Positions 1-15,082 are shown, counted from the stretch's first letter. The stretch is 32,000 nucleotides of DNA from Candidatus Nitrospira inopinata (GCF_001458695.1 NZ_LN885086.1:3240001-3272000); one strand, 5' to 3'. The notes: generated by a model not told the origin, from the letters alone. Numbers and translations are program-made.

Positions 1-20
1 GAAATGATCCCGATAAACGT

Positions 21-46
21 TTTAAAAACCGCCCGCTTTTTGGCGG
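21..46 (-). terminator. possible rho-independent terminator downstream of bd-like oxidase A
   Basis: Plus-strand CCGCC (29-33) can pair with GGCGG (42-46) across an 8-nt loop. On the minus strand the hairpin is followed by TTTTT (A-run 24-28). The stem is short, so this is a weak call. Confidence 0.3.
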
Positions 47-232
47 AAGGATCACTGATCGATACCTGAAAATAAATAAGAAGCCCAGTCAGGACGGCGA
101 GCGCCATCCAACCCATTGAAAGCGCCTCAGCAATCAAATTACCCAAGGTACTAACCCTCCTACCGCTTCACAAGAAAAAGAACGGCGACGCTGTCCTTCC
201 TCTCACAAAGCCGATCCTTAGATAAAAGTCCA

Positions 233-2149
233 TCAATGGCTTCCAGCCGGCTGCGGAATAGCGCCAGGAACCCCGACCTTTGACTCAACCGGAGCCTTCT
301 TCTCCGTCAAACTGCCGAGCCAGAAGACAAAGAGAATACTGATCCAGAAAAACAGAACGTTGGCCGAAATCACATTGGCCGCGAATCCTACCGTATGCGT
401 ATAGGCCCACGGAGAGTTATCCCGCATAATTTCATTGACGTGCCAAAAGAGACGAACCGATGAACGAATATAGCCCATCAATCCCATCATCCAGGTAAAC
501 GCGGTAGCCAGCATGATGAGCGCATATTGAGAGCGCGCCGAAATTTTTCCCCATTCGATCGGACCCAGCTGCTTGGCTCCCTTCATCATCATGCTATTGA
601 GCGTGAACATGAAAAAGAGACACGAAAGAGTCGTTGCGACCTGAGGCACAGACAGGCCGACGCGTACGTTCGCAGGAATGTAATAGCCGTATATCGCGAG
701 GAATATGATGTTTATATATGCACAGGCAAAAAACACCCCCATAAAGATATTGCCGAACCTTGCCCATGAGACAGTTGAAACTTTGTTGCCCCTCATGTAC
801 CAGACAAAACTCAGCACGGTGGTTGTAATAATAACGTTAATGCCACCATTCTTCGCCGACATGACGCCATAGTTACCAAGAACCGGGTGCTGCTGCCCTC
901 CCATCGCCTTCAATTCGGCAGGCGTCATCACCATGGTATGAGGAGTAATAAAGACCATGAATCCGCAGGCCAACAAAAAGACCAGGTACTTGATATATCG
1001 CTGGTACTTCTCAGCACCTCGCATGCGGCCCATGGCCTGCCATAAATAGTAATTGGTGCTCAAAAACAAGATCCCGATCATCGTTGCCTGAATAATAAAC
1101 AGCCAAGCCAGGAGACCGCCCATGAGCGTAATCCCCATTTGTTGCCTGTAGGCATAGACCTCTCTCATCAGCCAATAGCCGGCAAACGGAAGAGGAATGA
1201 GGAAGGCCACCCCGAGCGCCATCGCGATGTATCCCATCCAATCATAATGAGCGCGCTCTTCCTCTGTTTTTGCAGCCAGAAACTTATAGGCTGCGTACGC
1301 CGCCACCACGCCGCCACCGAACGCCATGTTGCCGAGAATACGGTGGAGGTTCAGCGGATTCCACAAAGCCGTGTGAATGACATGCCAAATATTCCCCAAA
1401 TAGCGGCCCTGCTCATCGACACCGGCTGGCGACATCATGAAACCGATCCACGAATTCGCCAAAAACATGAGCAGCGTGCCAATCACGTTCAGAATGACGG
1501 ACATGCTCAAGTGGATCCATTTCAGGAACCCCTCTTTCATTTTGTCCCAGCCATAGTAATAGATATAAAGGGTTCCACTCTCCGCAACGAACATCAAGGC
1601 ATAAATGTGCATCACGGGACGGAAAATGCTTGATAGGTACGAGAAAAAGGTTGGATACAGCGTCAGGAATGTAAAAATAAGAATCCCGCCCAGGATGGCC
1701 GTCAGCGAGTAGGCGGTCAGGCTGATCTTAATAAAATCATACGCCAACTGATCATATCGCTTAGCAAGCGCCTTATCCTTCGTGACCACCCCCATAAACT
1801 CAATGATCATGCAGAAAATCGGCACGGCAAGAACAAAACTTCCATAATAGAGATGCTGCTGATTGGCAAACCAGAGCAAGACACGGCTTTCAAAGTTGTA
1901 TCGCGGATAATCGGCGGGGCCGTCCGTCGTTTTAGGCGCAGGAGCGCCGACCACAATGCCTTCGGTCTTGTAGTAGACATCTCTCGCCTTTTCAACTTTT
2001 TCGCCTTCCTTCTGCGCCCCCTCGGCAGCCGGAGCCTCTTCACCTGTAGCCGGCGATGGAAGCGCCATAACGATCGGAAGCAGAAGAGCAACAACCATCG
2101 CGCCAAGCGCAATGATCGAGAATAACTTCTTCCGGGTTACGACACCCAT
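233..2149 (-). CDS. cytochrome bd-like oxidase, CydA (subunit I)-like membrane protein, paralog A
   Basis: 638-aa ORF with AAGGAGG 6 nt upstream of the ATG at 2149. About 14 hydrophobic helices. CydA-type motifs: QQH in the first core helix, a KWIH helix, LANSWIGFMMSPAGV (resembles the aNsWMq.P.G motif of cyt bd subunit I) and WNPLNLHR. The loop where the quinol-binding Q-loop sits in canonical CydA is only about 10 residues (MREVYAYRQQ). Paralog of 5725..7605. Confidence 0.8.
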   Translation of the reverse strand: MGVVTRKKLFSIIALGAMVVALLLPIVMALPSPATGEEAPAAEGAQKEGEKVEKARDVYYKTEGIVVGAPAPKTTDGPADYPRYNFESRVLLWFANQQHLYYGSFVLAVPIFCMIIEFMGVVTKDKALAKRYDQLAYDFIKISLTAYSLTAILGGILIFTFLTLYPTFFSYLSSIFRPVMHIYALMFVAESGTLYIYYYGWDKMKEGFLKWIHLSMSVILNVIGTLLMFLANSWIGFMMSPAGVDEQGRYLGNIWHVIHTALWNPLNLHRILGNMAFGGGVVAAYAAYKFLAAKTEEERAHYDWMGYIAMALGVAFLIPLPFAGYWLMREVYAYRQQMGITLMGGLLAWLFIIQATMIGILFLSTNYYLWQAMGRMRGAEKYQRYIKYLVFLLACGFMVFITPHTMVMTPAELKAMGGQQHPVLGNYGVMSAKNGGINVIITTTVLSFVWYMRGNKVSTVSWARFGNIFMGVFFACAYINIIFLAIYGYYIPANVRVGLSVPQVATTLSCLFFMFTLNSMMMKGAKQLGPIEWGKISARSQYALIMLATAFTWMMGLMGYIRSSVRLFWHVNEIMRDNSPWAYTHTVGFAANVISANVLFFWISILFVFWLGSLTEKKAPVESKVGVPGAIPQPAGSH

Positions 2150-2223
2150 GAAATACCTCCTTACAGCAGGACAATTACTTTGCGATCTTGTTCTTGTTCA
2201 AATTTCCATTCAGGTCAATCGGC

Positions 2224-2355
2224 CTATTGGCGGAAGAGATACCAAAAGTCCAACCCTTGCATCTCCATCAAGTAATGATCGACCAGTGTAAAGTACCCCA
2301 CCGCGATGACCAGCGATACAATCACTGCAATGACCGGATTATTCAGCGCGCTCAT
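2224..2355 (-). CDS. 43-aa single-TM mini-protein (possible CydX-like accessory subunit)
   Basis: Hand-translated; it falls below the track cut-off. Sequence: MSALNNPVIAVIVSLVIAVGYFTLVDHYLMEMQGLDFWYLFRQ. GAGGAG lies 9 nt upstream of the ATG at 2355. One hydrophobic helix. It ends 74 nt upstream of the bd-like oxidase A start, on the same strand. Confidence 0.45.
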   Translation of the reverse strand: MSALNNPVIAVIVSLVIAVGYFTLVDHYLMEMQGLDFWYLFRQ

Positions 2356-2438
2356 ACCTTTCGTCTCCTCTTTATCTCTCTGGTCGGTTTCACCAAAACC
2401 GAATCAAGCCCACAGCTCCACCTGATACCCCTTGACCT

Positions 2439-2564
2439 TTAGCAAGGGCACTGAATACCCGCGAACCAGTAAAAAAACCACAACCCAACGGCACAGGTGA
2501 TATAAAAAATCATTTTGCCGATTTTGATTTTAACGTCGCTATCCCGTTGTGCTGCCTCTGCCAT
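2439..2564 (-). CDS. 41-aa single-TM mini-protein ending in CPC
   Basis: Hand-translated: MAEAAQRDSDVKIKIGKMIFYITCAVGLWFFYWFAGIQCPC. AAGGAG lies 7 nt upstream of the ATG at 2564. One hydrophobic helix. Same strand as, and directly upstream of, the 43-aa ORF and bd-like oxidase A. Confidence 0.45.
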   Translation of the reverse strand: MAEAAQRDSDVKIKIGKMIFYITCAVGLWFFYWFAGIQCPC

Positions 2565-2616
2565 CTATAACTCCTTGTTCCTGATCAAGAGGAATGAATG
2601 ACCGGCCTTGTGTTTC

Positions 2617-2645
2617 TTGACAGAGAGGTGACCCTGTGTTAATCA
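2617..2645 (+). promoter_or_regulatory. candidate sigma70-type promoter facing the 34-aa plus-strand ORF
   Basis: TTGACA (2617-2622), 17-nt spacer, TAATCA (2640-2645) preceded by TGT (extended -10-like). The -10 matches the consensus at only 2 of 6 positions. Confidence 0.2.
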
Positions 2646-2693
2646 ACTCCTCGCAAGCACGGTGTGTACTTTTGAATTTGCAAGGAAAAAATC

Positions 2694-2798
2694 ATGTCGA
2701 AAAACGCAAAAGTGTTTGACATTATAGTTTTGGCCGGAATGGTTGTCAACATCATTTTGGCCGTGTTTTTGATCTTGTATTACTTCGATTTTCTCTAG
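2694..2798 (+). CDS. 34-aa hydrophobic mini-ORF, opposite strand to the cluster (coding status uncertain)
   Basis: Hand-translated: MSKNAKVFDIIVLAGMVVNIILAVFLILYYFDFL. AAGGA lies about 8 nt upstream of the ATG. One TM helix. Against coding: I counted only 38 G/C in 105 nt in a window that otherwise looks clearly more GC-rich by eye, and the ORF contains a perfect minus-strand promoter. Confidence 0.3.
   Translation: MSKNAKVFDIIVLAGMVVNIILAVFLILYYFDFL
2721..2749 (-). promoter_or_regulatory. perfect consensus sigma70 promoter driving the mini-ORFs and bd-like oxidase A
   Basis: The minus strand reads TTGACA (2749-2744), a 17-nt spacer ACCATTCCGGCCAAAAC, then TATAAT (2726-2721). That is 12 of 12 consensus positions at optimal spacing, in an AT-rich island just downstream of the FGE-like gene stop (2801). 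The predicted TSS is near 2714, about 150 nt upstream of the 41-aa ORF. Confidence 0.5.
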
Positions 2799-2800
2799 CA

Positions 2801-3697
2801 TCAGGTCTTTTCATTGCCCTGCTCGTTTTCTGAAATTTCTGACGTTGCACAGCGAAATCCTATCGTCTCATCCCGAAAATCAGGCATCATTTTGCTTCGA
2901 CTCGTAATGCGGATGTCGGCCCCGGTGGTCGTGTACCCCCCCCCTCGAAGCACCCGATAGGTTCCATACTCCGGCCCCATCGGATTCTTATCGGGGGAAT
3001 CCTTATAATATGTTTCTTGGTACCAATCAGCGACCCACTCCATCACGTTGCCTGCTCCATCCATGACTCCGTAAGGGCTGTGGTCCGTTTTGAAACTGCC
3101 TACCGGGGCAGACACCTCGTATCCGTCGTGCACTCGAGCCCAGTTTGCGCCGTTGGCCAATTCGTTATTCCCCCAGGGCCAGAGCCTCCCATCACTGCCG
3201 CGCATGGCCTTTTCCCACTCCGCCTCCGTCGGAAGACGCTTTCCCTTCCATCGGCAATACGCGTCTGCATCCTCCCAAGAGACGTACACCACCGGTTGAT
3301 TGGGCCCTTTCATCTTTCCGCCGCTCTTGGCATACCGTGCCGGCAATCCCGGTTTCCGATGTCCGGTCGCCAGAACGAATTGCTGATACTGCGCGTTGGT
3401 CACTTCGTATCGATCGATGAAAAACTCCTCCAGATAGACCGTTCGTTGTGGTTGCTCGTCAAACCCTCCGCTCTCGGTCCCGCGAATAAACGGTCCTGCT
3501 GGAATCCTCACCATCTCTTCTTCGATCGGCTCTTCCTTGGATACACTGTCGGCCTCTGGTTCAACTATTGCGGTCGTTTCTCCGACCGGCTCTTCGTAAG
3601 GCGTCAACGTTGTCCCCTTCATAATGCCCGCTATGGGAAGAGCGGCGCAGACCAACACGACGATCAAAAAAACAACTTTGAATTTGGTCTCGAGCAT
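2801..3697 (-). CDS. membrane-anchored FGE-sulfatase (SUMF1/DUF323) fold protein, paralog 2, no catalytic Cys pair
   Basis: Motifs: YCRWKGKRLPTEAEWEKAMRG, VLRGGGY and IGFRCATS. N-terminal TM anchor MLETKFKVVFLIVVLVCAALPIAG followed by an E/P-rich linker. I placed the start at ATG 3697, 7 nt after the stop of the upstream paralog at 3705. The track ORF extends to 3796 but would overlap that gene. Confidence 0.8.
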   Translation of the reverse strand: MLETKFKVVFLIVVLVCAALPIAGIMKGTTLTPYEEPVGETTAIVEPEADSVSKEEPIEEEMVRIPAGPFIRGTESGGFDEQPQRTVYLEEFFIDRYEVTNAQYQQFVLATGHRKPGLPARYAKSGGKMKGPNQPVVYVSWEDADAYCRWKGKRLPTEAEWEKAMRGSDGRLWPWGNNELANGANWARVHDGYEVSAPVGSFKTDHSPYGVMDGAGNVMEWVADWYQETYYKDSPDKNPMGPEYGTYRVLRGGGYTTTGADIRITSRSKMMPDFRDETIGFRCATSEISENEQGNEKT

Positions 3698-3704
3698 GCC
3701 CGCC

Positions 3705-4625
3705 TCACGGAGCCGAAACTGATCCGCTTTCCTGATCAAGATCCGCCGCGCAACGGATCCCGATCGTGATATCCGCACGCCAGTGCTTTGCCGCAAAACG
3801 CTTGGAGAGTCTCGCGTTATGCGTCGTTTCTCGCCATGATCCGCCGCGAACCACTTTGAGGTCGCCGTCTTCGGGTCCCTTGGGATCGCGGTACGGCGAC
3901 TTCTTGTAATAGTTCTCGTCGTACGAATCGGCCACCCACTCCGCGACGTTGCCGGTCATATCATAGAGCCCGTACGGACTCCGCCCCGACTCAAACGAGC
4001 CGGGAGGGGCAAGGTATTTATAACCGTCTTCGCTCCCGTCCAAATTGGCGTGCTCCGGAGCAAACTTATCCCCCCAGGCATACTTCCTTTTCCCCTCGCC
4101 TCGGCCCGCCTTTTCCCATTCCGCCTCCGTGGGAAGGCGCTTGCCGGCCCACTTGCAATAGGCCGCCGCGTCGCTCCAAGAGACGCTCATGGCGGCGAAC
4201 TCGGGTTGAAGCAGCTTGGATTGGTCGTCCTCGAACACTTCGATTCTCGGCATCGGGCGCTTTGTCATTTTGGCGAATCGCATGTATTCCGCCTGCGTCA
4301 CTTCCTTCAAATCGATATAGAACCCCTTTAAGAACACTTGGTGTTCAGGGGCTTCGTCCGGATCACCGTCGTTACTTCCCATGGTGAACGGCCCTTCAGG
4401 AATCTGCACCATTTCACGCCCTTCATCGCCGATTTTCGTTTTGTACATCGAATAGTCTTGGGGCATCGCTTTCGGCGCCGCCGACTGAGTTTCGGATGTC
4501 ACGGATTTCGCAAGTTCTTTAAGCTTGCTCGCCTTATACGACTCATAGACCAGCATGCCGATCAGTCCAAAAAACGACGCAAAGACAAAAATGATCGATC
4601 CATACAACACGCCTCTATTTTCCAC
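3705..4625 (-). CDS. membrane-anchored FGE-sulfatase (SUMF1/DUF323) fold protein, paralog 1, no catalytic Cys pair
   Basis: Motifs: YCKWAGKRLPTEAEWEKAGRG, VVRGGSW and IGIRCAADL. TM anchor VLYGSIIFVFASFFGLIGMLVY. I placed the start at GTG 4625, which has GGGGGA 6 nt upstream and lies 17 nt after the stop of ORF 4643..5044. The longest ORF reaches 4772, so the start is uncertain. Confidence 0.75.
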   Translation of the reverse strand: MENRGVLYGSIIFVFASFFGLIGMLVYESYKASKLKELAKSVTSETQSAAPKAMPQDYSMYKTKIGDEGREMVQIPEGPFTMGSNDGDPDEAPEHQVFLKGFYIDLKEVTQAEYMRFAKMTKRPMPRIEVFEDDQSKLLQPEFAAMSVSWSDAAAYCKWAGKRLPTEAEWEKAGRGEGKRKYAWGDKFAPEHANLDGSEDGYKYLAPPGSFESGRSPYGLYDMTGNVAEWVADSYDENYYKKSPYRDPKGPEDGDLKVVRGGSWRETTHNARLSKRFAAKHWRADITIGIRCAADLDQESGSVSAP

Positions 4626-4642
4626 GCCATTTCCCCCGCCGT

Positions 4643-5044
4643 TTACGGTTGCGGCGCCGACGGCTCGGTACGATCCGACGAGGCCTTCCTGGCCGCACGA
4701 AAATCCAGCAACATCGACACTTGGACACCAAGGAATCCACCCATCGCGGCCCCCGCGCCCGCGCCCACCCAAATCCTCTCAACATCCGCTACCAACCACG
4801 CCAGCGCCCCTCCCAGTAGCGTTCCCGTCATAATGCTCACGAGAAACCGGCGTCCGCCCAAAAACCCGACGACACCGCCCAGCAACAACCCCACCAGAAT
4901 GGCGACGGGCAACGCTCCCCACCCCATGACCATCCCGATCAGCGTTCCGACGGTCCCCATCACCGCCATCCCCAAAAGAATGTCCAGGATTTTTCCCATC
5001 GGCATCGCTCGGACTCGTTGACTCATCGGTCTTGACTCGCTCAT
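4643..5044 (-). CDS. Gly-rich (GxxxG / glycine-zipper) small integral membrane protein
   Basis: 133-aa ORF. Its ATG at 5044 directly abuts the TAA (5045-5047) of the upstream gene. It has 3-4 hydrophobic segments rich in GxxxG ([25 protein letters not shown]). No family was recognised. Confidence 0.5.
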
Positions 5045-5725
5045 TTATTTTCCTGGAAGCGCCATCAGCGGGCCGATATCGATCTCAACACCGGGTCCCG
5101 CCACAATCGAGATCCCCCATGCCTTTGCCGCGGGTTCATGCCCATGAATCTTCTTGAAATCTTCGTACACGTTCACGCGCTCCTCGAACCACCGTCCCAG
5201 CGTCGCGGTCCCGCTTCGGACCACGAGCTCGGACCCGCTGAACATTCCTCCCTCGGTGAGCGTCCCTTCGGGCTTCGAGGGGCTCCAGACGTATTTCGTG
5301 AAGACCGGAATAAACAGAAGATCGGTATCCAGCGAGGCATAGACGGCGGCGAGAGGTTCGGTTCCCGTCGGCGCCTTCAATAATCGCCATCGCCAGGTCA
5401 AGACCGGATAGGCTTTGGGGTCCCAATCGATCTTCTTTTTTTTGATCCGTTGCCCCGCGTCCTTCGCCGACAAAAAGACGTCACCGTTCTCCGATTGAAC
5501 TTTGTAGGCCTCGCGACCTTTTGCTTTGCTCCGTTGGTTTTCGTGTTCCCAATGCGAAGGAAACCCGTCGGCATCTTTCGCTTTGAAATCTTCCAGGATC
5601 AGGACTTGGCCTTCCGCCAGACCGAAACCGGGCCAGGAGGCAAATCCGATCGCCGCAAGAGTGATGACCATGGTTCGAATCGGCACGTTCCATCGCATCA
5701 GCTTACCCCTCTCCGTCTTTTTCAT
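5045..5725 (-). CDS. DUF3047-like secreted/periplasmic protein
   Basis: 226 aa with a signal-like N-terminus (MVITLAAIGFASWPGFGLAEG). YPVLTWRWRLLKAP, AAVYASLD and KYVWS resemble the DUF3047 signature (yP.L.WrW.v, a.vyv.F, YvW). The start ATG overlaps the TGA of bd-like oxidase B (TGATG at 5723-5727). Confidence 0.6.
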   Translation of the reverse strand: MKKTERGKLMRWNVPIRTMVITLAAIGFASWPGFGLAEGQVLILEDFKAKDADGFPSHWEHENQRSKAKGREAYKVQSENGDVFLSAKDAGQRIKKKKIDWDPKAYPVLTWRWRLLKAPTGTEPLAAVYASLDTDLLFIPVFTKYVWSPSKPEGTLTEGGMFSGSELVVRSGTATLGRWFEERVNVYEDFKKIHGHEPAAKAWGISIVAGPGVEIDIGPLMALPGK

Positions 5726-7605
5726 CAGGCTTCCGGTGAAGAGACCGGCGACAACAGCGGCGCGTTCGTATTATGACGCTCTTCGCCCATCACCGGTCGC
5801 CGACCCCATTGACACATCCAAAAAAGAACCAGCACAGCTCCCCAAAAGACCACCATGTTCAACGTCACCATTTTTGCGGCGAACGCGAGATCCGGAGTGA
5901 ACGCCCAGGGCGACACGTCGGCCATCACTTCGCTCACGTGCCACGCCAACCGTCCGGATGAGCGAATATAGCCCATCAGCCCCATCACCCAACTAAAAGC
6001 CGCCGCCATGGCGAACAGCACGACCATGCCTCGCGCCGGAATCTTTCCCCATTGGATTGGCCCATGAACGATCGACCGCTTCAGCATGGCGCGATTGATC
6101 AACAATCCGACGACGATGACCGTGAAAGTCGTGAAGGCTTGCGGCGCGGACAACCCCACGCGAACGTTCGCCGGCAAGTAGAATCCGTAAATCGACAGCC
6201 CCACGACATTTGCGAGACCGACCGCGAACAGCACCGCAATCATCACGTTGCCCGTCGTAACCCACGGCACCGTCATGGTGCGATTCGCCCGTCGCATGTA
6301 CAAGAAGCTGAGGGCGGTGCAGAGCAGAATGACGTTGATGGCTCCGTTCTTGGACGACATGACTCCATAGTTCCCGATGACCGGATGCTGCGCGCCGCCC
6401 ATCGCCTTCACCTCTCCCGCCGACACAAGAAGCGTATGCGGAGTCAGCCAAATAAACAGCGCCAACAGGAGCCCCCCGAACACCAATTGATAATAGGGTT
6501 GATAGCGTTCCGCCCCCTTCAGCCGCGCCATGCCTTGCCAGATGTAATAATTGATGCCCAGAAAGAGAGCTCCGATCAGCAACGCCTGCACGACAAACAT
6601 CCACGTCAGCAACCCCCCCATCATGGTCACGCCCATGGTCTGCCGAAACGCGAAGACCGACCGCATCAGCCAATACCCGGCGATCGGCATGGGCAACAAC
6701 GCGCACACCGTCACGAAGAGAAAGACGTACCCCACCCAATCGAAATAGGCCCGTTCCTCGGTCGTCTTGGCGGTAAAGAACCGGTAGCAGGCGTACGCCA
6801 ACACGACCGCTCCGCCGGACATGATGTCGGCCAGAAACCGATGCACATTGAGCGGATTCCAGAGGACGGAATGCAGCAGATGCCACCCGTTCCCAAGAAA
6901 CCGACCTTGAGCGTCCACGCCGGCCGGTGCCATCATGAACGCCGACCAGGCATTCGCCAGCAGCAACAGAGCGGTCCCCACGACGTTCGTCGCCACCCCC
7001 ATGGCCGCATGCACCCATTTCATGCCCCGCTCGGTCATCCGGTCCCAACTATAGTAATAAAGGATCAGGAGCACTGACTCGACCACGAACACGGCGGCAT
7101 AGGCCGGCATAAACGATTTGAAGGTTCCGCCCATGTAAGTCATGAAGCTCGGATACAGCCCGATAAACATCGCGAGCATCAGACTTCCGATGACGGCGGT
7201 CACGGAGAGCGCCAACACCGCCACCTTCGCCAGATCCCTCGCCAACCCGTCGTATCTGAGCGACAACGCCGGTTTGGAGGTCATCAATCCCAGAAATTCC
7301 AGCAAGGCGCAAAAAAGCGGCAACGCCAGCACGAACCCGCCGAAATACGTGTGCTGCTGAGTCACAAACCACACCAGCGCCCGGCTGTCGAACGAGCCGA
7401 TCTGCGGGTACGCCGTTTCATGAGGCGCGGGCGCGGCGGGACCTTGCGGCACGCCGGGCGTGTTGAAATAGACGTCCAGCGACCCCTCGGCCAAGGAAAC
7501 CCCTTCCATGCCGACGAACCCCAGCAAGGCGACCAGTGTCGCAATGACTCCTATCAGCTCGAGCGCCACCCGTTTCTCTCGTCGCAAACGATCCCGAACA
7601 ACCAT
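5725..7605 (-). CDS. cytochrome bd-like oxidase, CydA (subunit I)-like membrane protein, paralog B
   Basis: 626 aa, collinear with paralog A. By eye roughly half the positions are identical; this was not computed. Shared motifs: QQH, KWVH, LANAWSAFMMAPAGV, WHLLH..WNPLNVHR, TPHT, AQHP, WHV. About 14 TM helices and no Q-loop. The ATG at 7605 lies 1 nt after the stop of the upstream membrane-protein gene. Confidence 0.8.
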   Translation of the reverse strand: MVVRDRLRREKRVALELIGVIATLVALLGFVGMEGVSLAEGSLDVYFNTPGVPQGPAAPAPHETAYPQIGSFDSRALVWFVTQQHTYFGGFVLALPLFCALLEFLGLMTSKPALSLRYDGLARDLAKVAVLALSVTAVIGSLMLAMFIGLYPSFMTYMGGTFKSFMPAYAAVFVVESVLLILYYYSWDRMTERGMKWVHAAMGVATNVVGTALLLLANAWSAFMMAPAGVDAQGRFLGNGWHLLHSVLWNPLNVHRFLADIMSGGAVVLAYACYRFFTAKTTEERAYFDWVGYVFLFVTVCALLPMPIAGYWLMRSVFAFRQTMGVTMMGGLLTWMFVVQALLIGALFLGINYYIWQGMARLKGAERYQPYYQLVFGGLLLALFIWLTPHTLLVSAGEVKAMGGAQHPVIGNYGVMSSKNGAINVILLCTALSFLYMRRANRTMTVPWVTTGNVMIAVLFAVGLANVVGLSIYGFYLPANVRVGLSAPQAFTTFTVIVVGLLINRAMLKRSIVHGPIQWGKIPARGMVVLFAMAAAFSWVMGLMGYIRSSGRLAWHVSEVMADVSPWAFTPDLAFAAKMVTLNMVVFWGAVLVLFWMCQWGRRPVMGEERHNTNAPLLSPVSSPEA

Positions 7606-7606
7606 G

Positions 7607-8659
7607 CTACACCTTTGATCCAGGAGCAGTCGGCATCGGCGTGCTCACATGTTTTGTTTTTCCAAGAATGCCCATCACAAAAGGACACCGGAGCAGGGCT
7701 TCGTCGATTCTTTCTCCCTGTTGCTCTTCCACATGCCGGCGATGTCCCAAGTAGTATCCGTAGAGCGCCATCATTCCGCCCACGAATCCTCCGCCGGCGA
7801 CGGAAAAACCGGGGACCAGGGTCGGCCATTGCGCGACAAACAGGCCGACGCCCGTCGCGACCAAATAATAGGTGGACGAAAAAGCGAGCCCCGGCCACCA
7901 CCAATACTTGAAGAGTTCGGATACGCTTGTCGCGGAGAATCGCGCCGTCCATGAGACGCGTCCGTTCATACCGCCGAAATAGGCGCACAAGGTGATCGCG
8001 CCTCCCAGCAACGCGACGGCGAACAATTGCACGATGATCGCCTGCTGTCCCATGACCACGTGATCGAGGGACGCGGCCGCCGCGCCGATCACCGATCCGG
8101 CCGCCACCCAGGGACCGACCTGAGCCGCGCGGCTCCTTATCATGTCTCGCAACGGCGCTCCGTCGGGGAACGTGGGAAACGGTCTCCCCATCGCGGCCAT
8201 CCGGCGCACATGGCCGATCTCAAACGCATCCCGCGCCACCGACGTGCACGCGACCATGATCGCCATCATGGCGGGACCATCCGGATGTTGCAGATAGTCG
8301 TAGCCCACCATCCACAACAGCGCCAACACCAGCAGCGAGAGCTGCGCGCCGTAGACCGCTCCAATCCAGACAACCATCCACGCGAGAACACGTCTGCCGT
8401 CTTGGCGGGCAATCACCCCCCAGGAGGCGGATCGCCCGATCCGGTAAGCGAACAGGGCCGTTGCCATTGCGATCAGACTGCTCAACAAGAGCAATGTCAG
8501 CGGCTCCGCAATCGGCACCAGGTGTTTGGCCGCACGATACACCGCGAAGGCGACCAAGCCCGGCACAAGCATGATCAGCCGTTTCCGTTTTCGGACGGAC
8601 TCCTCCGTCACAGCCAGGCTCAAGCTGGGAAGCACTCGCAAGGCCATCCGATGCAACAT
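7607..8659 (-). CDS. uncharacterised polytopic (about 8-9 TM) membrane protein
   Basis: 350-aa ORF with GGAGGAAAG immediately upstream of the ATG at 8659. It has multiple hydrophobic helices, a WWWPG segment and a GGGFVGGMMALYGYY helix. It is separated from bd-like oxidase B by 1 nt. No family was recognised. Confidence 0.65.
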   Translation of the reverse strand: MLHRMALRVLPSLSLAVTEESVRKRKRLIMLVPGLVAFAVYRAAKHLVPIAEPLTLLLLSSLIAMATALFAYRIGRSASWGVIARQDGRRVLAWMVVWIGAVYGAQLSLLVLALLWMVGYDYLQHPDGPAMMAIMVACTSVARDAFEIGHVRRMAAMGRPFPTFPDGAPLRDMIRSRAAQVGPWVAAGSVIGAAAASLDHVVMGQQAIIVQLFAVALLGGAITLCAYFGGMNGRVSWTARFSATSVSELFKYWWWPGLAFSSTYYLVATGVGLFVAQWPTLVPGFSVAGGGFVGGMMALYGYYLGHRRHVEEQQGERIDEALLRCPFVMGILGKTKHVSTPMPTAPGSKV

Positions 8660-8748
8660 CTTTCCTCCGCCGAACGTGACGCTTGAGGAGAAAAACGGAC
8701 CATGAGTCGCGCGTCGGGTCGCATGTTCCCGATCGACATTTCCGCTAT

Positions 8749-9246
8749 CTAGATCCTCTGAGCTCCCATTCCAAAATACTTCGCTTTGACCTCTTCCATC
8801 AGCGACACGGTCACGACATTCATCCCTCGCTCGACCGCCGTCCGTTCCAGCTCAACCTTCGCCATCGCCCGCACGGCGGCCGGCACTTTTTCCAATCGTC
8901 GTTCCGCTTCCGGCTCCCACTCGATCCGTTCTTCGGATGAGGGGTTGAGGAGCGAGTCATAAGTAATAACCCTTGTTTCTCGGGCTCTGGCCCGCGCTTC
9001 CGCTTCCTGCCGAACGAGTGACGCCAGGTACGGCGGCATTCGGTCCAACCGATGCAGCGCCTCGTCCGTCCACATCAATCGATCGACCAATCCGCCGATG
9101 TTACCGGCCGGCACGTCAACGCCCACCTTCAGTCCGCACCCACGACATTCGGACCGAATAAACCACTGGGCCGCTCCGTCTTCGCAAGCCCGTTCCTCGA
9201 TCCCCTCCGTGTGCATCCACCGCCCACAGCCGCAGGTCAACATCAT
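8749..9246 (-). CDS. Cys-rich protein with two PCP_red (protochlorophyllide reductase B C-terminal-like) domains
   Basis: 165 aa. The N-terminus has CGCG..C..CRGC. There are two repeats of the PCP_red pattern W-x-x-E-A-x-x-x-L-x-x-hP-x-x-hR: WTDEALHRLDRMPPYLASLVRQEAE and WEPEAERRLEKVPAAVRAMAKVELERTAVERGMNVVTVSLMEEVKAKYF. Confidence 0.6.
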   Translation of the reverse strand: MMLTCGCGRWMHTEGIEERACEDGAAQWFIRSECRGCGLKVGVDVPAGNIGGLVDRLMWTDEALHRLDRMPPYLASLVRQEAEARARARETRVITYDSLLNPSSEERIEWEPEAERRLEKVPAAVRAMAKVELERTAVERGMNVVTVSLMEEVKAKYFGMGAQRI

Positions 9247-9352
9247 CCGCTATCCGCCGCTTGCTCCAAAAGCAGCGACCGCAAGGCTCGACTCGCAGCC
9301 GAACCCCTAATTCGCTCAACGGCCATGCGTCGTCGCTTCGCCGCAATGCTTC

Positions 9353-10066
9353 TCATCCGATTTTCCCTGGATAGAGAATGTACAACATCGTGTAGGTGAA
9401 GCTCCCGGTTACGAACAGCACGCAGTAGATTACCATGGTGAACCGACCGAGCGCCCGATGTCGCTGAGCTCCGTCCGGCCATATTCGTTGAATCGCCATC
9501 TCCATCAGCAAAACCACCGTAAAGATGAGCATGAACGCAATCCAGACACTGGACCTCCGCATTGAAAGGCGGTCTGTCAGGTGCAGATAAAGGAGATACG
9601 TTCCTATCAAGCCGCCGACGGCGGTCCACAGCTTGGCGATCGCGCCCCATGAAGCTTGCCTGGGGCCGGCTTTCAGCCGCCGTTTCCCGCCGACAAACGT
9701 TTGGACTCGAAAGCCGAGGACAATGAGATACACCGCCATGATGAGACCGACGATGACGAGGGTAATGTGAAGGATCAGCACGGGGACGAACACGCGGTCG
9801 TACAGTTCCTGAGAACCGCCGAACCCTTCTTTCCCCTCGAACGCCAAGACGCCGAGCTGGCGAAACAGATAATAGACCACAAAGAAACCGGCCATGGAGA
9901 TCATGCCGCCCAACATCAACCAGTGGTGAGCATCGGTGTGTTGCTTGCGAGCCTGCACCCATCCGACGATGAACAAAACAGTAAAGAGCGTCGCCATCAA
10001 TTGGCTCAAGTCCGCCCCCACCGTGGCATGTGTGCCAAAAAATCCAGACTCCCGCAGCCAATCCAT
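9353..10066 (-). CDS. DUF420 (CtaM-like) integral membrane protein, enlarged 6-TM version
   Basis: 237 aa. It has HHWLMLGG, VLILHITLVIVG and a C-terminal HRALGRFTMVIYCVLFVTGSFTYTMLY, matching the DUF420 pattern (H..lm, iL..H, HR.l.r...p.W.yv.vTG...Y). Two extra hydrophobic helices sit between the conserved parts. The overlapping 9243..10061 ORF in another frame is Arg/Gly-rich and was rejected. Confidence 0.65.
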   Translation of the reverse strand: MDWLRESGFFGTHATVGADLSQLMATLFTVLFIVGWVQARKQHTDAHHWLMLGGMISMAGFFVVYYLFRQLGVLAFEGKEGFGGSQELYDRVFVPVLILHITLVIVGLIMAVYLIVLGFRVQTFVGGKRRLKAGPRQASWGAIAKLWTAVGGLIGTYLLYLHLTDRLSMRRSSVWIAFMLIFTVVLLMEMAIQRIWPDGAQRHRALGRFTMVIYCVLFVTGSFTYTMLYILYPGKIG

Positions 10067-10151: not shown

Positions 10152-11141
10152 TCAGATCGCCCGACTCTTGACGCCCTGGACGACGGCCGTTTTTTCCAAC
10201 TCCGCAATATCGGCAAACCCGGCCCTCGTCATCCATCTCACCGCATCACTGCATCGATAACAACTCCCGGCCTGAGTGTTCACCAGGATGTGCACGGCGA
10301 ACGCGGTCGTCCATGCGGGACCGGTTCCGGCTTCATTAAGGAAACGATCCTTGATGACCAATCGCCCTTGGGGGGCGAGGTGCGCGAATGCTTTTTCGAC
10401 CAACGCTTCATTCGCTTCATCGGTCTGATAATGCAACACGTCGGACATCAACACGACGTCGTAGGGGCCGCCGAGAGGGTCCCGGTTAAAGTCACCGGGG
10501 AGCAGGGCAATCCGCGAGGCCAACCCTCTTTCTTTTACCGTCTTCTCAGTCAGTCGGAGCGTGGTCGGAAGGTCGAACACCGTCGCGGTCAAATCAGGAT
10601 ACACTTCGCAAAACGCGATCGCGTTCGTTCCGGCTCCTCCCCCCAAATCCAACAGACGAACAGGCCCGCTCAATCCAAGGCGTCTCGCCAATTCCGGGCC
10701 GCTCTGCCGGCCGATTCGATCCAATACGGCCAAGACGTTGCCGCCTAATTCCGGATCGGTCTCGAACACGTGTCGATCGACCGCCCGCCTCCCCGTGCGA
10801 ACGGTTTCTTCCAACTTGCCCCAATTGTTCCACTCCGCGTCATGAAGCAGCAGCAAGTGCCCCACATAGTGGGGCGACCGTGGAACAAGATGTTTGTCCG
10901 CGACCGACGAATTGCCGTATCGATCGCCTTCTTTGGCGAGTAATTTCATGGCCACAAGGGCGTTCAGCAAAAGGCGAAGCGTCGGTTCATGGACGCCGAT
11001 CCGGCCTGCGACTTCACCGGCGGTTTTGGGCGTGCCGTCCAGTGCGGAAAACACGTTCAACGTCACCGCGGTTAATAAAATTTTCGTTTCCCAGTAGTAG
11101 CCGAGTTGAAAAATCTCGGCGAGCGAAAGCTCTCGCGACAC
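10152..11141 (-). CDS. class I SAM-dependent O-methyltransferase (family 2, COMT/CrtF-like, with N-terminal dimerisation/wHTH domain)
   Basis: 329 aa with a GTG start. SAM motif LLDLGGGAGTNAIAF; also VFDLP, DVVLMSDVLHY and an N-terminal LNVFSAL..PKTAGEVAGRIGVHEPTLRLLLNALVAMKLL. Confidence 0.85.
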   Translation of the reverse strand: MSRELSLAEIFQLGYYWETKILLTAVTLNVFSALDGTPKTAGEVAGRIGVHEPTLRLLLNALVAMKLLAKEGDRYGNSSVADKHLVPRSPHYVGHLLLLHDAEWNNWGKLEETVRTGRRAVDRHVFETDPELGGNVLAVLDRIGRQSGPELARRLGLSGPVRLLDLGGGAGTNAIAFCEVYPDLTATVFDLPTTLRLTEKTVKERGLASRIALLPGDFNRDPLGGPYDVVLMSDVLHYQTDEANEALVEKAFAHLAPQGRLVIKDRFLNEAGTGPAWTTAFAVHILVNTQAGSCYRCSDAVRWMTRAGFADIAELEKTAVVQGVKSRAI

Positions 11142-11300: not shown

Positions 11301-12095
11301 TTACTTGATCTCGGCCTTGAGATTGGCCGTTCCACCATCCGTCACGTCGATCTCAAACTCGATCTTCTTGGCCTTCCCGGCGAACGGATGCCAGGCCACC
11401 ACCTTATGTTTGCCGGCCGGAACGTCCTTGATCTCGAACGAACCGTCTTCCTTCGCCACCGCGTAGTACGGATTGTTCACCGGAAGGAAAAAAGACTGCA
11501 TGAACTCATGCTGATCGCACTGCAAGCGGAAGTAGCCCTCTTTCTCCGCGCCGCCGCGGAACACCACGGGCTTTTCCAGTTTGTCGCCCTTCTTGGCAAG
11601 ACCGATGTTGAAGCCGGTCGCGGAGGTCGCTCCCTTCACCACAAAACTGTGCGGGTTATGAAGCACGCCCGCCACCGATTTGGGATCGTCCGGATCAGCA
11701 TCGAAGTTTTCGACTTTAAACGGCCGATTGTTGACGACAATGCCGCTGAACGGCTGGAAATCGCAGAACTCCGCCTTGACTTCAGTGCCGGCATAGCCGT
11801 CCATGAAGGCTTTGTCTTCGATATCCACCACCGCGACGATCGCGTTCTTTAAACCGCCGTCCTTGCCGACTTCAATCGTCTTGATGAACCGCTTATCTCC
11901 TTCCGCCAAACCCTTGGTCGGAATCTTGTTACAGAAATTCGGGTTGGGGAACTTGGAGAAGAGAAACTCCTTCTGCTCGGACTTTCCGGCGTAGGTGACT
12001 TTGCCGGAAATCGTCCCACCCGCAAACGACGCGACAGGCGCCGCCACCACGGCGACGGCTACCACGCCCAACATGATCGATAACGAACGCCTCAT
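11301..12095 (-). CDS. secreted cupredoxin-like (type-1 copper motif) protein with a C-terminal beta-sandwich (carboxypeptidase-regulatory-like) domain
   Basis: 264 aa with AAGGAGG 7 nt upstream. Signal peptide MRRSLSIMLGVVAVAVVAAPVASFAGG. The candidate T1Cu ligand set is LHNPHSF plus CDQHEFM (C-x2-H-x2-M, the amicyanin spacing). The C-terminal GSFEIKDVPAGKHKVVAWHP is typical of the beta-sandwich fused to these proteins. Confidence 0.6.
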   Translation of the reverse strand: MRRSLSIMLGVVAVAVVAAPVASFAGGTISGKVTYAGKSEQKEFLFSKFPNPNFCNKIPTKGLAEGDKRFIKTIEVGKDGGLKNAIVAVVDIEDKAFMDGYAGTEVKAEFCDFQPFSGIVVNNRPFKVENFDADPDDPKSVAGVLHNPHSFVVKGATSATGFNIGLAKKGDKLEKPVVFRGGAEKEGYFRLQCDQHEFMQSFFLPVNNPYYAVAKEDGSFEIKDVPAGKHKVVAWHPFAGKAKKIEFEIDVTDGGTANLKAEIK

Positions 12096-12523
12096 AACAT
12101 TGCCTCCTTGGTGATGGACTTAGGGATCCCATTGCGTCCCTAGGGAGTCCTCTCCCGGATCCCCCCGATCGACACACGGGAACAGCCTACGCTGGATTGT
12201 GTCAAGACGATCGGCACCGTGCCGGAAAGACTGGCCTAGGACTGTTGACTTGCACGGATATTACCGCACCCAGCCTTTGCAAACAAGACCCAAAATTTCC
12301 GTAGAACGGCGCCCATGAGACCCCCCCCCTCGCCTTCGCTCCTTGGAGACGGCCCTCGCTCTCTACAGATGCCGCTCGCAATTCCCGCATGGCACATGAC
12401 GTGATCCGTCGCCGAATCCCGGCCCTAAAAAAATGAATGGCGAATCGGCCGGCAACCTGCTAAAGTGCCACCCATTCGTTGCCGGTTTTCTTTCTGAGGG
12501 AATCCAGGGTCCGATTCACCTGC

Positions 12524-13474
12524 ATGCTTCACGCATCAAAGTTTTCTAAAGTCTCTTCATCATCCGGTCCTTTTTTCGCAGGGCTTCCCGATCAAACCTC
12601 AACCGGTCCGCGGCGGACCTATCCTCAGTTTGCGACGGTGCTTCTCTTCTGTCTGATCGTAGCCGCGACGGTCATCGGGGTCCCCCTCTTCGGATATCTC
12701 TACGGGTACAATCGGCTTGATTGGATGATGTTCGGCCTGTTGTACGTGGTCACCGGACTGGGCATTACCGTCGGCTACCATCGTTTGATTTCGCACCGCA
12801 GCTTTGCCTGCCCCGATTGGGTCAAAGCGGGGTTGCTGATCGCCGGCGGGTGGGCGCTCCAAAACTCGGCGCTGAAGTGGGGCGCTGACCACATCCGGCA
12901 CCATGCGGCCTGTGATCAAGAAGCCGACCCCTACAATGCGACGCGCGGCTTTTGGTACAGCCACTGTGGATGGCTCTTGGTGGGGCAACGGTACACCGAG
13001 GAGAAATACGCCACACGGCTCCGCCAAGACCCAGTCGTCATGTGGCAACACCGGTACTACGTTCCGATCGTGTTGTCGGGGCTGGCACTGCCATTCGTTG
13101 TCGGATTCTTGCACGGCGGCTGGGGCGGCGGGCTGAGCTGTTTCATGCTGGCCGGTATCGGCCGAACGTTCGCCGTCCTCAATTCCACGTTTTGCATCAA
13201 TTCGATCTGCCATATCTGGGGACGCCAACCGCACAGTCAAGCCGATTCGAGCCGCGACAGTTGGTTGGTGTCGCTGTTGACGTTCGGCGAGGGATACCAC
13301 AACTATCACCACACCTACCCGAGCGACTATCGCAACGGCCCGCGATGGTACAACTTCGACCCTTCGAAATGGCTGATCTCCACTCTCTCGTTCCTGGGGT
13401 TGGCATGGTCGCTCCGAACGGCCGGTGATCCCGCGGCAAAGGGTTCCGGGCTTCGGACTGCGTCCGGCGGATGA
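12524..13474 (+). CDS. membrane fatty-acid (acyl-CoA/acyl-lipid Delta9-type) desaturase
   Basis: Three His boxes typical of Delta9 desaturases: GYHRLISHRSF, HIRHHAACDQEADPYN and GEGYHNYHHTYPSDY. I placed the start at ATG 12524; the track ORF begins at TTG 12479. Confidence 0.85.
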   Translation: MLHASKFSKVSSSSGPFFAGLPDQTSTGPRRTYPQFATVLLFCLIVAATVIGVPLFGYLYGYNRLDWMMFGLLYVVTGLGITVGYHRLISHRSFACPDWVKAGLLIAGGWALQNSALKWGADHIRHHAACDQEADPYNATRGFWYSHCGWLLVGQRYTEEKYATRLRQDPVVMWQHRYYVPIVLSGLALPFVVGFLHGGWGGGLSCFMLAGIGRTFAVLNSTFCINSICHIWGRQPHSQADSSRDSWLVSLLTFGEGYHNYHHTYPSDYRNGPRWYNFDPSKWLISTLSFLGLAWSLRTAGDPAAKGSGLRTASGG

Positions 13475-13497
13475 TGGCAAGCCCTGGGGACAGAAGC

Positions 13498-14379: not shown

Positions 14380-14395
14380 AAGCGGGGTATGCCGT

Positions 14396-15082
14396 TCACA
14401 CCGACCGGTTCTTGGCGGGGATGCGCTGCTCGACCCAATTCACGACGACGTCAAGCCCCTCTCCGGTCAATATATTGGTAAAGATGAACGGCAGATCACC
14501 TCTCATACGGCGGGCATCGCGATCCATGATGGATAAATCGGCCCGAACGAAGGGGGCCAGATCCATCTTGTTGATGATCAGGAGGTCTGACCGTGTGATC
14601 CCCGGCCCGCCTTTGCGCGGAATCTTGTCCCCTCCCGCCACGTCGATCACATAGATCACGTAATCCACCAATTCGGGACTGAACGTCGCCGCCAGGTTAT
14701 CGCCGCCGCTTTCCAGAAAGATCAGCTCAACGTCCGGATGATGACGCAACAGATCGTCGATCGCTTCTTGATTATGCGACGCGTCTTCCCGGATCGCCGT
14801 GTGGGGGCAGCCTCCGGTTTCCACCCCCACGATGCGATCAACCGGCAGGGCCGCGCGACTGGTCAAAATCTCCGCGTCGATTTTCGTGAAGATGTCGTTC
14901 GTCACGGCGGCCAGGCTATATCGATCACGGAGGCGACGACACAGTGCTTCGACGAGCGCGGTCTTGCCTGACCCGACCGGTCCTCCCACGCCGATGACCG
15001 GAATACCCTTCGCTCTGGCTTGAGTGGGCTCTACCCCGCCGTGATGATGTCCATGATTCAGATCATGCATAAGAACACCCAC
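14396..15082 (-). CDS. ureG: urease accessory GTPase UreG with a His-rich N-terminus
   Basis: P-loop [13 protein letters not shown]; also [20 protein letters not shown] and NKMDL. The N-terminus is [11 protein letters not shown]. The GTG at 15082 has GAGGAA 8 nt upstream. Confidence 0.95.

Follow-up and report, generated by a model that had tools for sequence, protein, structure and literature searches.

Canonical cytochrome bd consists of CydA and CydB, usually accompanied by a CydX-type mini-subunit. Nitrospira, which perform much of global nitrite oxidation as well as complete ammonia oxidation, encode proteins that resemble CydA, and these bd-like proteins are standing candidates for the answers to two questions: how electrons exit the periplasmic nitrite oxidoreductase (NXR), and which enzyme reduces O2. 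Here we analyze two such paralogs, bd-like A and bd-like B, together with the genes that surround them at positions 233-9246 of a stretch of 32,000 nucleotides (nt) from the Candidatus Nitrospira inopinata genome (GCF_001458695.1, NZ_LN885086.1:3240001-3272000), the whole of which is referred to below as the window.

In Nitrospira moscoviensis, the bd-like_3 gene clusters with genes for two c-type cytochromes and with alt_NxrC_2; this cluster ranks among the 40 most transcribed genes and has counterparts conserved in Nitrospina and in anammox bacteria, a duplicate of bd-like_3, named bd-like_4, lies a few genes off in all Nitrospira genomes, and the terminal oxidase function of the bd-like proteins is unconfirmed (Mundinger et al., 2019, PMC6606698). 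For the NXR cluster, Lucker et al. (2013, PMC3578206) name a conserved gene set whose products are a bd-like oxidase with 14 helices and no Q-loop, an alternative NxrC, two cytochromes c (one monohaem, one dihaem), a pair of cupredoxin-like proteins and a zinc-finger protein. Murali, Gennis and Hemp (2021, bioRxiv 10.1101/2021.01.16.426971) recognize three families in the bd superfamily, qOR, OR-C and OR-N, with diagnostic residues for each subfamily, and describe OR-N2 operons as carrying several cytochromes c and an EbdC homologue, often without another cydA-like gene; duplicated cydA paralogs are proposed there to co-assemble, with OR-N1 and OR-N2 as a possible exception.

We assign a probability of about one half to the explanation that the region is the Nitrospira form of a conserved membrane electron-transfer locus accompanying the periplasmic NXR, and that it is organized as two minus-strand transcription units, of which unit A is the electron-transfer module and unit B a separate, low-abundance complex. 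Unit B encodes, in order, a membrane protein of about 8 helices, bd-like B, a DUF3047 protein, a Gly-rich protein and two proteins with the fold of formylglycine-generating enzyme (FGE), FGE-fold 2 and FGE-fold 1. Unit A encodes mini-protein 1, mini-protein 2, bd-like A, a dihaem cytochrome c, a monohaem cytochrome c and an alternative NxrC, the last three extending or lying past the window edge (Table 1). Electrons from nitrite oxidation would enter unit A via the NxrC-like haem c/haem b protein and travel by way of the two anchored c cytochromes to the b haems of bd-like A, which would either reduce O2 or feed quinone for reverse electron flow, as has been proposed (PMC6606698; PMC3578206); the mini-proteins may be single-helix subunits comparable to CydX or CydH. 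Bd-like B and the 8-helix protein would form their own membrane complex at low abundance, its periplasmic face covered by non-redox proteins (the DUF3047 protein and the FGE-fold proteins as scaffolds) instead of cytochromes, and this complex could serve as an auxiliary isoform or an assembly platform.

The division into two units is carried by the packing of the genes and by a promoter between them. Checking of the open reading frames (ORFs) placed every gene of the cluster on the minus strand, at the coordinates given earlier by a first-pass annotation made by a model from the sequence alone, which had described a run of tightly joined ORFs from 8659 down to 2801. Successive genes of unit B are separated by +1 nt (7607/7605, TAG C ATG), -1 nt (5725, TGATG), 0 nt (5045/5044), +17 nt (4643/4625, with a GTG start) and +7 nt (3705/3697); a gap of 236 nt, which contains the unit A promoter, then lies between the genes for FGE-fold 1 and mini-protein 1. 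Across approximately 80 species, with start codons assigned approximately, the median junctions inside unit B are 4, 8, 21, 24 and 6.5 nt, and the gap preceding mini-protein 1 always exceeds 20 nt, with a median of 229 nt. A 12.5-kilobase (kb) scan returned 3 promoter-like sites versus 5.2 expected from shuffled sequence, and both hexamers of the unit A promoter are invariant at every base in 69 species, even at synonymous sites of an ORF on the opposite strand, with variation at third positions of the spacer. The first-pass annotation had read this layout as one tightly packed unit followed by a separate, promoter-driven one that opens with two short transmembrane ORFs, and the junctions, the 12/12 promoter match, the conserved gap and the conservation of both mini-proteins, each with a Shine-Dalgarno site, all agree with it. 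What it missed of unit A were the cytochrome c and NxrC-like genes, which we read from contig CZJZ01000009 of assembly GCA_001458755.1 (locus L002), a contig that includes the window.

Conservation was assessed in a single scan of species-representative genomes, which yielded 80 Nitrospira loci with bd-like B orthologues 74-98% identical to that of the window; the closest relatives of the window are all Nitrospira genomes. Loci were annotated by phmmer with the window proteins as single-sequence queries, and gene order was judged as far as each contig reaches. The comparison was extended to 80 distant metagenome loci and to further related loci, namely L086, L089 and L090, which come from lineages without bd-like B (taxonomy not determined), and L088, from the thermophilic Nitrospira sp. 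Kam-Ns4a, which has the full gene set. Synteny of the gene set had been named beforehand as a test, and in 80/80 Nitrospira loci the order is identical: cupredoxin-like (1-4 copies), methyltransferase, DUF420, PCP_red, 8-helix, bd-like B, DUF3047, Gly-rich, FGE-fold 2, FGE-fold 1, mini-protein 1, mini-protein 2, bd-like A, dihaem, monohaem, alternative NxrC. Median identity to the window proteins is 92% for bd-like A, 86-87% for the cytochromes and alternative NxrC and 83-85% for the mini-proteins; it is 79% for bd-like B, 75-80% for the FGE-fold proteins, 77% for the DUF3047 protein, 71% for the Gly-rich protein and 63% for the 8-helix protein.

Outside Nitrospira, the parts of the locus separate. 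L086, L089 and L090 have related flanking genes and lack bd-like B, the DUF3047 protein and the Gly-rich protein, and they keep an FGE-fold gene, the gene for a 34-amino-acid (aa) protein on the opposite strand, detectable mini-proteins, bd-like A, both cytochromes and alternative NxrC. In most of the distant loci whose contigs reach these genes, a bd-like gene is again followed by dihaem, monohaem and NxrC-like genes, and PCP_red and cupredoxin-like genes are often close by; FGE-fold, DUF3047, 8-helix, Gly-rich, mini-protein and 34-aa genes were not detected in these 80 loci by single-sequence phmmer. These distributions suggest a layered locus, with a widespread core of four genes, the FGE-fold and small proteins in Nitrospira and three related lineages, and unit B found in Nitrospira only. 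Unit A appears as the ancestral, highly expressed module and unit B as a duplicate-plus-partners unit found only in Nitrospira.

That the full unit B is found only in Nitrospira, and that its partners have no recognizable redox motif, would suit a view of the accessory genes as unrelated passengers whose order has been kept by shared descent in a young genus. We regard this as highly improbable, since the order is unbroken in 80 species although the proteins have diverged to 54-80% identity, the few-nucleotide junctions are maintained, expression is coherent within the unit (see below), and the FGE-fold gene, the 34-aa gene, the mini-proteins and bd-like A stay together in distant lineages despite differing flanks.

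Transcript levels in N. moscoviensis (Mundinger et al., 2019, supplement) fall into two tiers. Unit A genes stand at 4743 (alt_NxrC_2, rank 17), 3243 (dihaem cytochrome c, rank 29) and 2645 (bd-like_3, rank 37), and unit B genes at 402 (FGE-fold protein NITMOv2_3647, rank 539), 306 (8-helix protein, rank 788) and 262 (bd-like_4, rank 921); the PCP_red protein encoded upstream of unit B stands at 443 (rank 471). Levels are coherent within each unit, in line with the co-expression that had been expected of the cluster, and are approximately 10-fold higher in A than in B; the two tiers fit a strong internal promoter. The units also differ in composition, with G+C of 0.44-0.51 in unit A genes at window 1-3000 and L002 12004-16217 (0.52-0.68 at third codon positions) versus 0.55-0.62 (0.61-0.77) in unit B and the genes upstream of it, and the lower G+C of unit A could be due to expression-linked codon use or to a different history.

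Table 1. Features of the bd-like cluster and its flanks; positions are counted from the first letter of the window and E-values refer to the Pfam family named.
Feature	Position	Strand	Description
Unit B	8659 to 2801	-	8-helix protein through FGE-fold protein 1
Unit A	from promoter 2749-2721	-	mini-protein 1 through alternative NxrC
Cupredoxin-like protein	11301-12095	-	264 aa; secreted, signal-like N-terminus; first in conserved order
O-methyltransferase	10152-11141	-	329 aa; Methyltransf_2 (E 7.5e-20) and Dimerisation (E 1.7e-12); position conserved in all loci reaching it
DUF420 (CtaM-family) membrane protein	9353-10066	-	237 aa; DUF420 (E 5.8e-20); position conserved
PCP_red protein	8749-9246	-	165 aa; Cys-rich, zinc-finger-like; two PCP_red domains (E 8.5e-22, two stretches)
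8-helix membrane protein	7607-8659	-	350 aa; about 8 helices; first gene of unit B; stop 1 nt before bd-like B start
bd-like B	5725-7605	-	626 aa; OR-N2-type CydA homologue; Cyt_bd_oxida_I (E 1.2e-16); bd-like_4 of N. moscoviensis
DUF3047 protein	5045-5725	-	226 aa; secreted; DUF3047 (E 1.2e-16; 61.3 bits, cut-off 27)
Gly-rich ("Gly-zipper") small membrane protein	4643-5044	-	133 aa; hydrophobic Gly-rich segments
FGE-fold protein 2	3705-4625	-	306 aa from GTG start; FGE-sulfatase (E 5.5e-57); N-terminal hydrophobic anchor
FGE-fold protein 1	2801-3697	-	298 aa; FGE-sulfatase (E 8.9e-61); membrane-anchored
34-aa protein	2694-2798	+	hydrophobic mini-protein; converges on FGE-fold gene 1, contains unit A promoter; reads MSKNAKVFDIIVLAGMVVNIILAVFLILYYFDFL
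Sigma-70 promoter of unit A	2749-2721	-	TTGACA-17-TATAAT; 12/12 consensus positions
Mini-protein 1	2439-2564	-	41 aa; single helix; C-terminal CPC; Shine-Dalgarno site upstream
Mini-protein 2	2224-2355	-	43 aa; single helix; Shine-Dalgarno site upstream
bd-like A	233-2149	-	638 aa; OR-N2 CydA homologue; Cyt_bd_oxida_I (E 2e-20); bd-like_3 of N. moscoviensis, kustd1712 of Kuenenia
Dihaem cytochrome c	1-146 (start only, rest past window edge)	-	436 aa; membrane-anchored; 2 CxxCH; locus L002
Monohaem cytochrome c	outside window, after dihaem gene		345 aa; 1 CxxCH; locus L002
Alternative NxrC	outside window, after monohaem gene		591 aa; 2 CxxCH and EB_dh; locus L002

Both large proteins belong to the CydA superfamily, as the first-pass annotation had it. 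The Pfam model Cyt_bd_oxida_I (cut-off 26.2 bits) matches A with 73.2 bits and B with 60.8 bits, in each case over the N-terminal part of the 418-position profile only (2-241 in A, 2-247 in B), and the two proteins are 49% identical over 588 aa. The predicted fold of B points the same way: in a Foldseek search of the PDB with an AlphaFold2 model (predicted local distance difference test, pLDDT, 78; predicted template modelling score, pTM, 0.77), every one of the 10 best matches is a CydA chain (E 7e-8 to 5e-5, probability 1.00, target-normalised template modelling (TM) score 0.46-0.57). A sequence search of the PDB returned no OR-N structure, the sole match to A being a weak one to CydA. The other families suggested at the outset for ORFs of the cluster and its flank (FGE-sulfatase, DUF3047, DUF420 and PCP_red) were likewise matched by hidden Markov model searches.

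At the subfamily level, A equals the OR-N2 reference TKS59798.1 at 15/15 of the diagnostic residues tabulated by Murali et al., with zero offset (H99, Y183, E190, Y197, Y199, H213, L227, I235, H269, M430/N434, S563, W569, G155 and I158), and it therefore keeps the His/Met pair of haem b558 and the equivalents of His19, Glu107 and His126. B shares the Tyr-x6-Glu, His and Met/Trp positions of OR-N2 in an alignment with A. The haem ligands His19 and His186/Met393 (Escherichia coli numbering) correspond to H99, H269 and M430 in A and to H85, H255 and M416 in B. Of a putative O2-reducing site with high-spin haem, the His19-equivalent ligand is the one feature that the sequences show. In 51 aligned A-, B- and orphan-type sequences, H85, E176, H199, H255 and M416 (B numbering) are invariant, as are three more histidines, H390, H407 and H556, two of which are also at least 90% conserved in distant homologues; these three might serve in an additional haem or metal site. 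Glu99 is replaced by Tyr183 and Glu445 by Ser563 in A, and the loss of these two residues, together with the absence of a Cyt_bd_oxida_II match in the cluster and its neighbours, suggests that this is not a canonical quinol-oxidizing bd of the qOR (CydAB) type. The Q-loop appears to be absent as well, given the literature (PMC3578206) and a Pfam match that ends before the Q-loop region. The gene content of OR-N2 operons, several cytochromes c and an EbdC homologue, is found in unit A, and unit B contains no CxxCH motif or EB_dh domain. Identity to outgroup homologues is 44-46% for A versus 37-39% for B, and B is therefore the faster-evolving copy.

No CydB- or CydDC-like gene was found in the cluster, among 10 ORFs sampled elsewhere in the window or among the listed neighbours in related loci, so that two initial claims, the lack of these genes here and the lack of a canonical cydB pairing elsewhere, hold in the loci examined. 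With CydB missing, A and B could conceivably make up one heterodimeric CydAA'-type enzyme, B taking the structural place of CydB, an arrangement already proposed for other OR-N subfamilies with paired genes. The ten-fold transcript difference between the two in N. moscoviensis, their separate promoters and separate partner sets, and the occurrence of A without B in L089, L090 and the 80 distant loci make such an enzyme doubtful, even though the two genes lie approximately 3.6 kb apart in every Nitrospira locus that reaches both and later genome papers assume OR-N CydAA' oxidases. The co-assembly of duplicated paralogs put forward by Murali et al. would favor it, and the possible exception that the same preprint makes for OR-N1 and OR-N2, along with the frequent lack of a second cydA-like gene beside OR-N2, tells against it. 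CydB chains do turn up for the B model as weaker fold matches (probability 0.6-0.96), as is to be expected from the fold that CydA and CydB have in common.

Further bd-like genes were seen in related loci. In place of unit B, L086 carries an inverted bd-like paralog of a third type, which is otherwise solitary in Nitrospiria metagenome-assembled genomes (MAGs), with unrelated neighbours; homologues of this third type (P0241-type), followed as a lead to B-like units in other taxa, turned out to be solitary bd-like genes. In L087 (10001-15775), from a Nitrospirales MAG, a 653-aa bd-like paralog is immediately followed by a 56-aa ORF and a gene for a 1145-aa molybdopterin (NxrA-like) protein.

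The partners of bd-like B are distinct from those of A. The 8-helix protein matches no Pfam or NCBIfam model; it has 1021 homologues, and among the 120 listed all are unnamed or "hypothetical" and every named source is Nitrospira. The first-pass annotation had called it an unknown protein of nine transmembrane segments, and the lack of a family stands, with about 8 long helices instead of nine in the AlphaFold2 model (pLDDT 75, pTM 0.76). The same model was used to consider the protein as a divergent CydB, which was rejected: the best Foldseek match in the PDB has E 0.17 and TM 0.19 and no bd oxidase chain is among the matches, although model confidence is moderate and a very remote kinship is conceivable. 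A weak homologue is encoded upstream of the methyltransferase gene in the distant locus L086. The DUF3047 protein has an N-terminal hydrophobic, signal-like segment and no cysteines, its start overlaps the stop of bd-like B, and its sequence has no relative in the PDB even at E 10; among the Nitrospira, related and distant loci it is found only where bd-like B is also present. The Gly-rich protein, with no Cys or His and a sub-threshold match to DUF6332 only (E 0.012), is conserved in 77 loci.

The two FGE-fold proteins, 46% identical to each other, score 206 and 194 bits against FGE-sulfatase (cut-off 23.3) and align to genuine FGEs at E 1e-41. FGE activity needs two cysteines that hold copper, and genuine FGEs are copper enzymes (10.1101/2021.05.21.445229). 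In FGE-fold 1 the C-HDSY-C active site of Streptomyces coelicolor FGE (6muj) is replaced by TTTGA and a gap, and the sole cysteines of FGE-fold 2, C157 and C292, are structural, with no catalytic pair. A role as active formylglycine-generating or copper enzymes was accordingly rejected, the named families also remaining below cut-off (PvdO, EgtB, SenA and GldK models of NCBIfam, at best 93-107 bits against cut-offs of 350-500), and with it falls the maturation enzyme function that the first-pass annotation had implied. PvdO, Tsi3 and NirV, FGE-fold proteins that likewise lack the cysteines, are scaffolds or proteins of unknown role (10.1101/2021.05.21.445229). A gene resembling that of FGE-fold 1 is the upstream neighbour of the A module in L086, L089 and L090, all of which lack bd-like B, and therefore the FGE-fold protein is not simply a partner of B, as the initial grouping with the B set would have it.

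Upstream of unit B, the conserved order begins with the cupredoxin-like protein, in which H146, H149, C193, H196 and M199 are invariant in 61 sequences; other species have 1-4 tandem copies. A strong terminator-like hairpin (11272-11242, minus strand; 13-bp stem with 9 GC pairs and a T run) follows this gene and a weaker one (9276-9301, minus strand) follows the DUF420 gene, which suggests separate transcription units upstream of the PCP_red gene. CtaM/DUF420 is required for haem-copper oxidase assembly and is a proposed copper exporter (PMC13344008). C5, C7, C34 and C37 of the PCP_red protein are invariant, and PCP_red proteins flank the module in many distant metagenome loci (L102, L110, L116 and L154 are among those bearing them), fused in 5 examined cases to Usp or radical-SAM/SPASM domains; this recurrence beside bd-like modules hints at cofactor (tetrapyrrole or metal) handling. 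Together, the cupredoxin-like, DUF420/CtaM-like, PCP_red and methyltransferase genes plausibly supply electron carriers and copper or haem handling, and the combination of DUF420, cupredoxins and extra invariant histidines would be compatible with a copper-related reading. In L088 (1-1817) and L090 (1-314), a protein of more than 1600 aa with faint or weak multicopper-oxidase matches is encoded upstream of the cupredoxin-like genes; a multicopper oxidase has been mentioned in the NXR cluster (Lucker et al., 2013, PMC3578206).

These upstream genes invite a different account of unit B, in which its partners, perhaps along with B, work in maturation or assembly instead of making up a functional redox complex: they would supply the A complex and the cupredoxins with copper or haem, or chaperone the assembly of both; the DUF3047, FGE-fold, Gly-rich and 8-helix proteins and the upstream DUF420/CtaM-like and PCP_red proteins would all belong to this set. 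The known requirement for DUF420/CtaM in oxidase assembly and its proposed copper export (PMC13344008), the radical-SAM/SPASM fusions of PCP_red in distant loci with their hint of tetrapyrrole chemistry, the copper chemistry of genuine FGEs (10.1101/2021.05.21.445229), the position of an FGE-fold gene and the 34-aa gene immediately before the A module in B-less lineages, and expression of unit B approximately 10-fold below A, as is usual for assembly factors, can all be cited for it. We nevertheless judge it rather unlikely: the FGE-fold proteins lack both copper-binding cysteines, the DUF3047 and 8-helix proteins occur only alongside B and are thus tied to B and not to A, and the haem-ligand residues of B are all kept under purifying selection (74-98% identity across 80 species), which is unexpected for a mere chaperone.

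Between unit B and unit A lies a third small gene, encoded on the opposite strand. The 34-aa protein is near-invariant in 75 loci, including the distant L086, L088, L089 and L090, and is the most conserved protein of the locus; in all 75 its gene stands just after the FGE-fold gene, antisense to the module, and gene callers report it in several genomes. Across 69 Nitrospira loci its residues are fixed and third codon positions vary (e.g., codons 4, 11, 15, 22 and 23): the major third-position base reaches only 51%, 57%, 52% and 58% at codons 4, 11, 15 and 23, respectively, and Leu codon 22 varies at two positions. Such variation with fixed residues marks this, at the level of sequence, as a translated gene. 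Every position of codons 6-9 and 12-14 is invariant, as are the first two bases of codon 15, and these stretches hold the reverse complements of TATAAT and TTGACA; with synonymous variation elsewhere, the promoter and the 34-aa gene are therefore both selected in the same DNA. Two minus-strand ORFs (2643-2801 and 2639-2755) were considered as the cause of conservation in the promoter region and rejected, as the variable sites are third positions of the plus-strand frame and first positions of the 2643-2801 frame. On the plus strand at 2565-2693, upstream of the 34-aa gene, there is a conserved TTGACA with a TGTTAA block 14 nt downstream, a pair that may be the promoter of this gene and which, if real, would possibly make the 34-aa and unit A transcripts overlap head to head at their 5' ends.

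Mini-proteins 1 and 2 are found in 67 and 65 loci, with median identities of 85% and 83%, respectively; the core WFFYWF of mini-protein 1 is retained in the distant L089 and L090, and the motif LMDxQGLDxWYxFR of mini-protein 2 in L088 and L089. Neither matches any Pfam family. In size, hydrophobic helix, position and conservation, the predicted 41-, 43- and 34-aa proteins fit CydX-type subunits. Between bd-like_3 (RS16745) and the FGE-fold gene with tag RS16755, the RefSeq locus tags of N. moscoviensis have space for a single gene only, and from this tag numbering the mini-proteins and the 34-aa gene are probably missing from that annotation. The small proteins therefore appear to be absent from at least one reference annotation and would be overlooked in proteomic databases built on it.

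A more far-reaching proposal, which we hold only tentatively and consider unlikely on present evidence, is that unit B encodes an undescribed membrane complex with a catalytic or metal-handling role of its own in Nitrospira respiration, assembled from a bd-like haem protein without CydB or cytochrome partners, an 8-helix protein of unmatched fold, the DUF3047 and Gly-rich proteins and FGE-fold proteins free of copper ligands, with the 34-aa protein and the two mini-proteins as further subunits of the A or B complexes. One option within this proposal would be a copper site built from the three extra invariant histidines, H390, H407 and H556.

Several points weigh against our preferred explanation of an electron-transfer module beside a separate low-abundance complex. 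O2 reduction, quinone interaction and subunit composition are putative for every OR-N protein, the terminal oxidase function being, as the first-pass annotation had rightly pointed out, a proposal, and the physical link of B to its neighbours is likewise putative. The partners of B have no recognizable redox motif (no Cys in the DUF3047 and Gly-rich proteins, no copper ligands in the FGE-fold proteins), and a catalytic role of the B complex is therefore speculative; the FGE-fold gene that stands beside A in loci without B means that at least one FGE-fold protein may serve A. The junction start codons are only approximately assigned across species, the small proteins may have gone unseen in distant loci because phmmer searches with single sequences have limited reach, and the expression figures cover a single species in a single growth condition.

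Two bd-like paralogs without CydB are already published, and the original idea of an uncharacterized redox complex built on them, while correct, is therefore not new; the bd-like pair and the A module are described in PMC6606698, PMC3578206 and 10.1101/2021.01.16.426971. The claim that the combination is not a described system stands for the accessory genes only: the partner set of unit B, the FGE-fold pseudo-enzymes with their wider association, and the three mini-proteins appear to be new. A literature search returned no paper on DUF3047 in Nitrospira or on an FGE protein with bd-like oxidases, which is not proof that none exists. The vague picture of "four bd-like paralogs" is replaced by a defined parts list with operon boundaries, comprising a universal 4-gene core, an FGE-fold protein and three mini-proteins shared by Nitrospira and three related lineages, and a second unit with its own partners, found in Nitrospira only, and from this list complexome proteomics, heterologous expression and structural studies can draw defined targets. 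The remainder of the window (12479-31006) is ordinary context without respiratory genes, encoding a fatty-acid desaturase, ureD and ureC beside further urease-type ORFs, a urea ABC transporter of which the binding protein and the permease were confirmed, a bactofilin, a porin-like protein and a protein with a carboxyltransferase domain.

The closest described counterpart of unit A is the NXR-associated module of Nitrospira, Nitrospina and anammox bacteria. In Kuenenia, kustd1712 (cydA-like), kustd1711 (dihaem), kustd1710 (monohaem) and kustd1709 (dihaem) follow the same order as unit A, and cupredoxin-like and zinc-finger/PCP_red genes lie near the module, as they do here; the Kuenenia counterparts of the cupredoxin-like protein are kustd1699 and kustd1713, which have been called blue copper proteins (PMC11897245). 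Nitrospira unit A differs in standing apart from nxrAB and in being preceded by an FGE-fold gene, the 34-aa gene and two mini-protein genes, none of which is listed in the Kuenenia cluster. Compared with the OR-N2 subfamily, A and B both have approximately 14 helices and the A operon has the gene content that Murali et al. describe; the context of B, with 8-helix, DUF3047, Gly-rich and FGE-fold proteins and neither a cytochrome c nor an EbdC homologue, does not come up in the consulted portions of that paper and its supplement.

The FGE-fold proteins resemble PvdO, PorK/GldK, the T6SS immunity protein Tsi3 and NirV in having a single FGE-sulfatase domain without copper cysteines that is exported or anchored on the periplasmic side, and they align with PvdO over the whole length, below the family cut-off; unlike these proteins, they have an N-terminal helix anchor, their genes lie inside a respiratory cluster and they fall into no named NCBIfam family. 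Set against canonical CydABX (E. coli bd-I, PDB 6rko), the locus has no CydB or CydDC, the Q-loop is replaced by extra helices, three extra invariant histidines are present and the likely donor would be cytochrome c, not quinol, whereas the predicted CydA fold of B, the equivalents of His19, His126, His186, Met393 and Glu107 in both A and B, and the small single-helix proteins encoded beside the large subunit are shared. These small proteins depart from CydX, CydH and CydS in that their genes lie upstream of the large subunit, the third is on the opposite strand and none has Pfam similarity; like CydX, CydH and CydS, they are single-helix proteins of about 40 aa, encoded beside a cydA-like gene and conserved across species.

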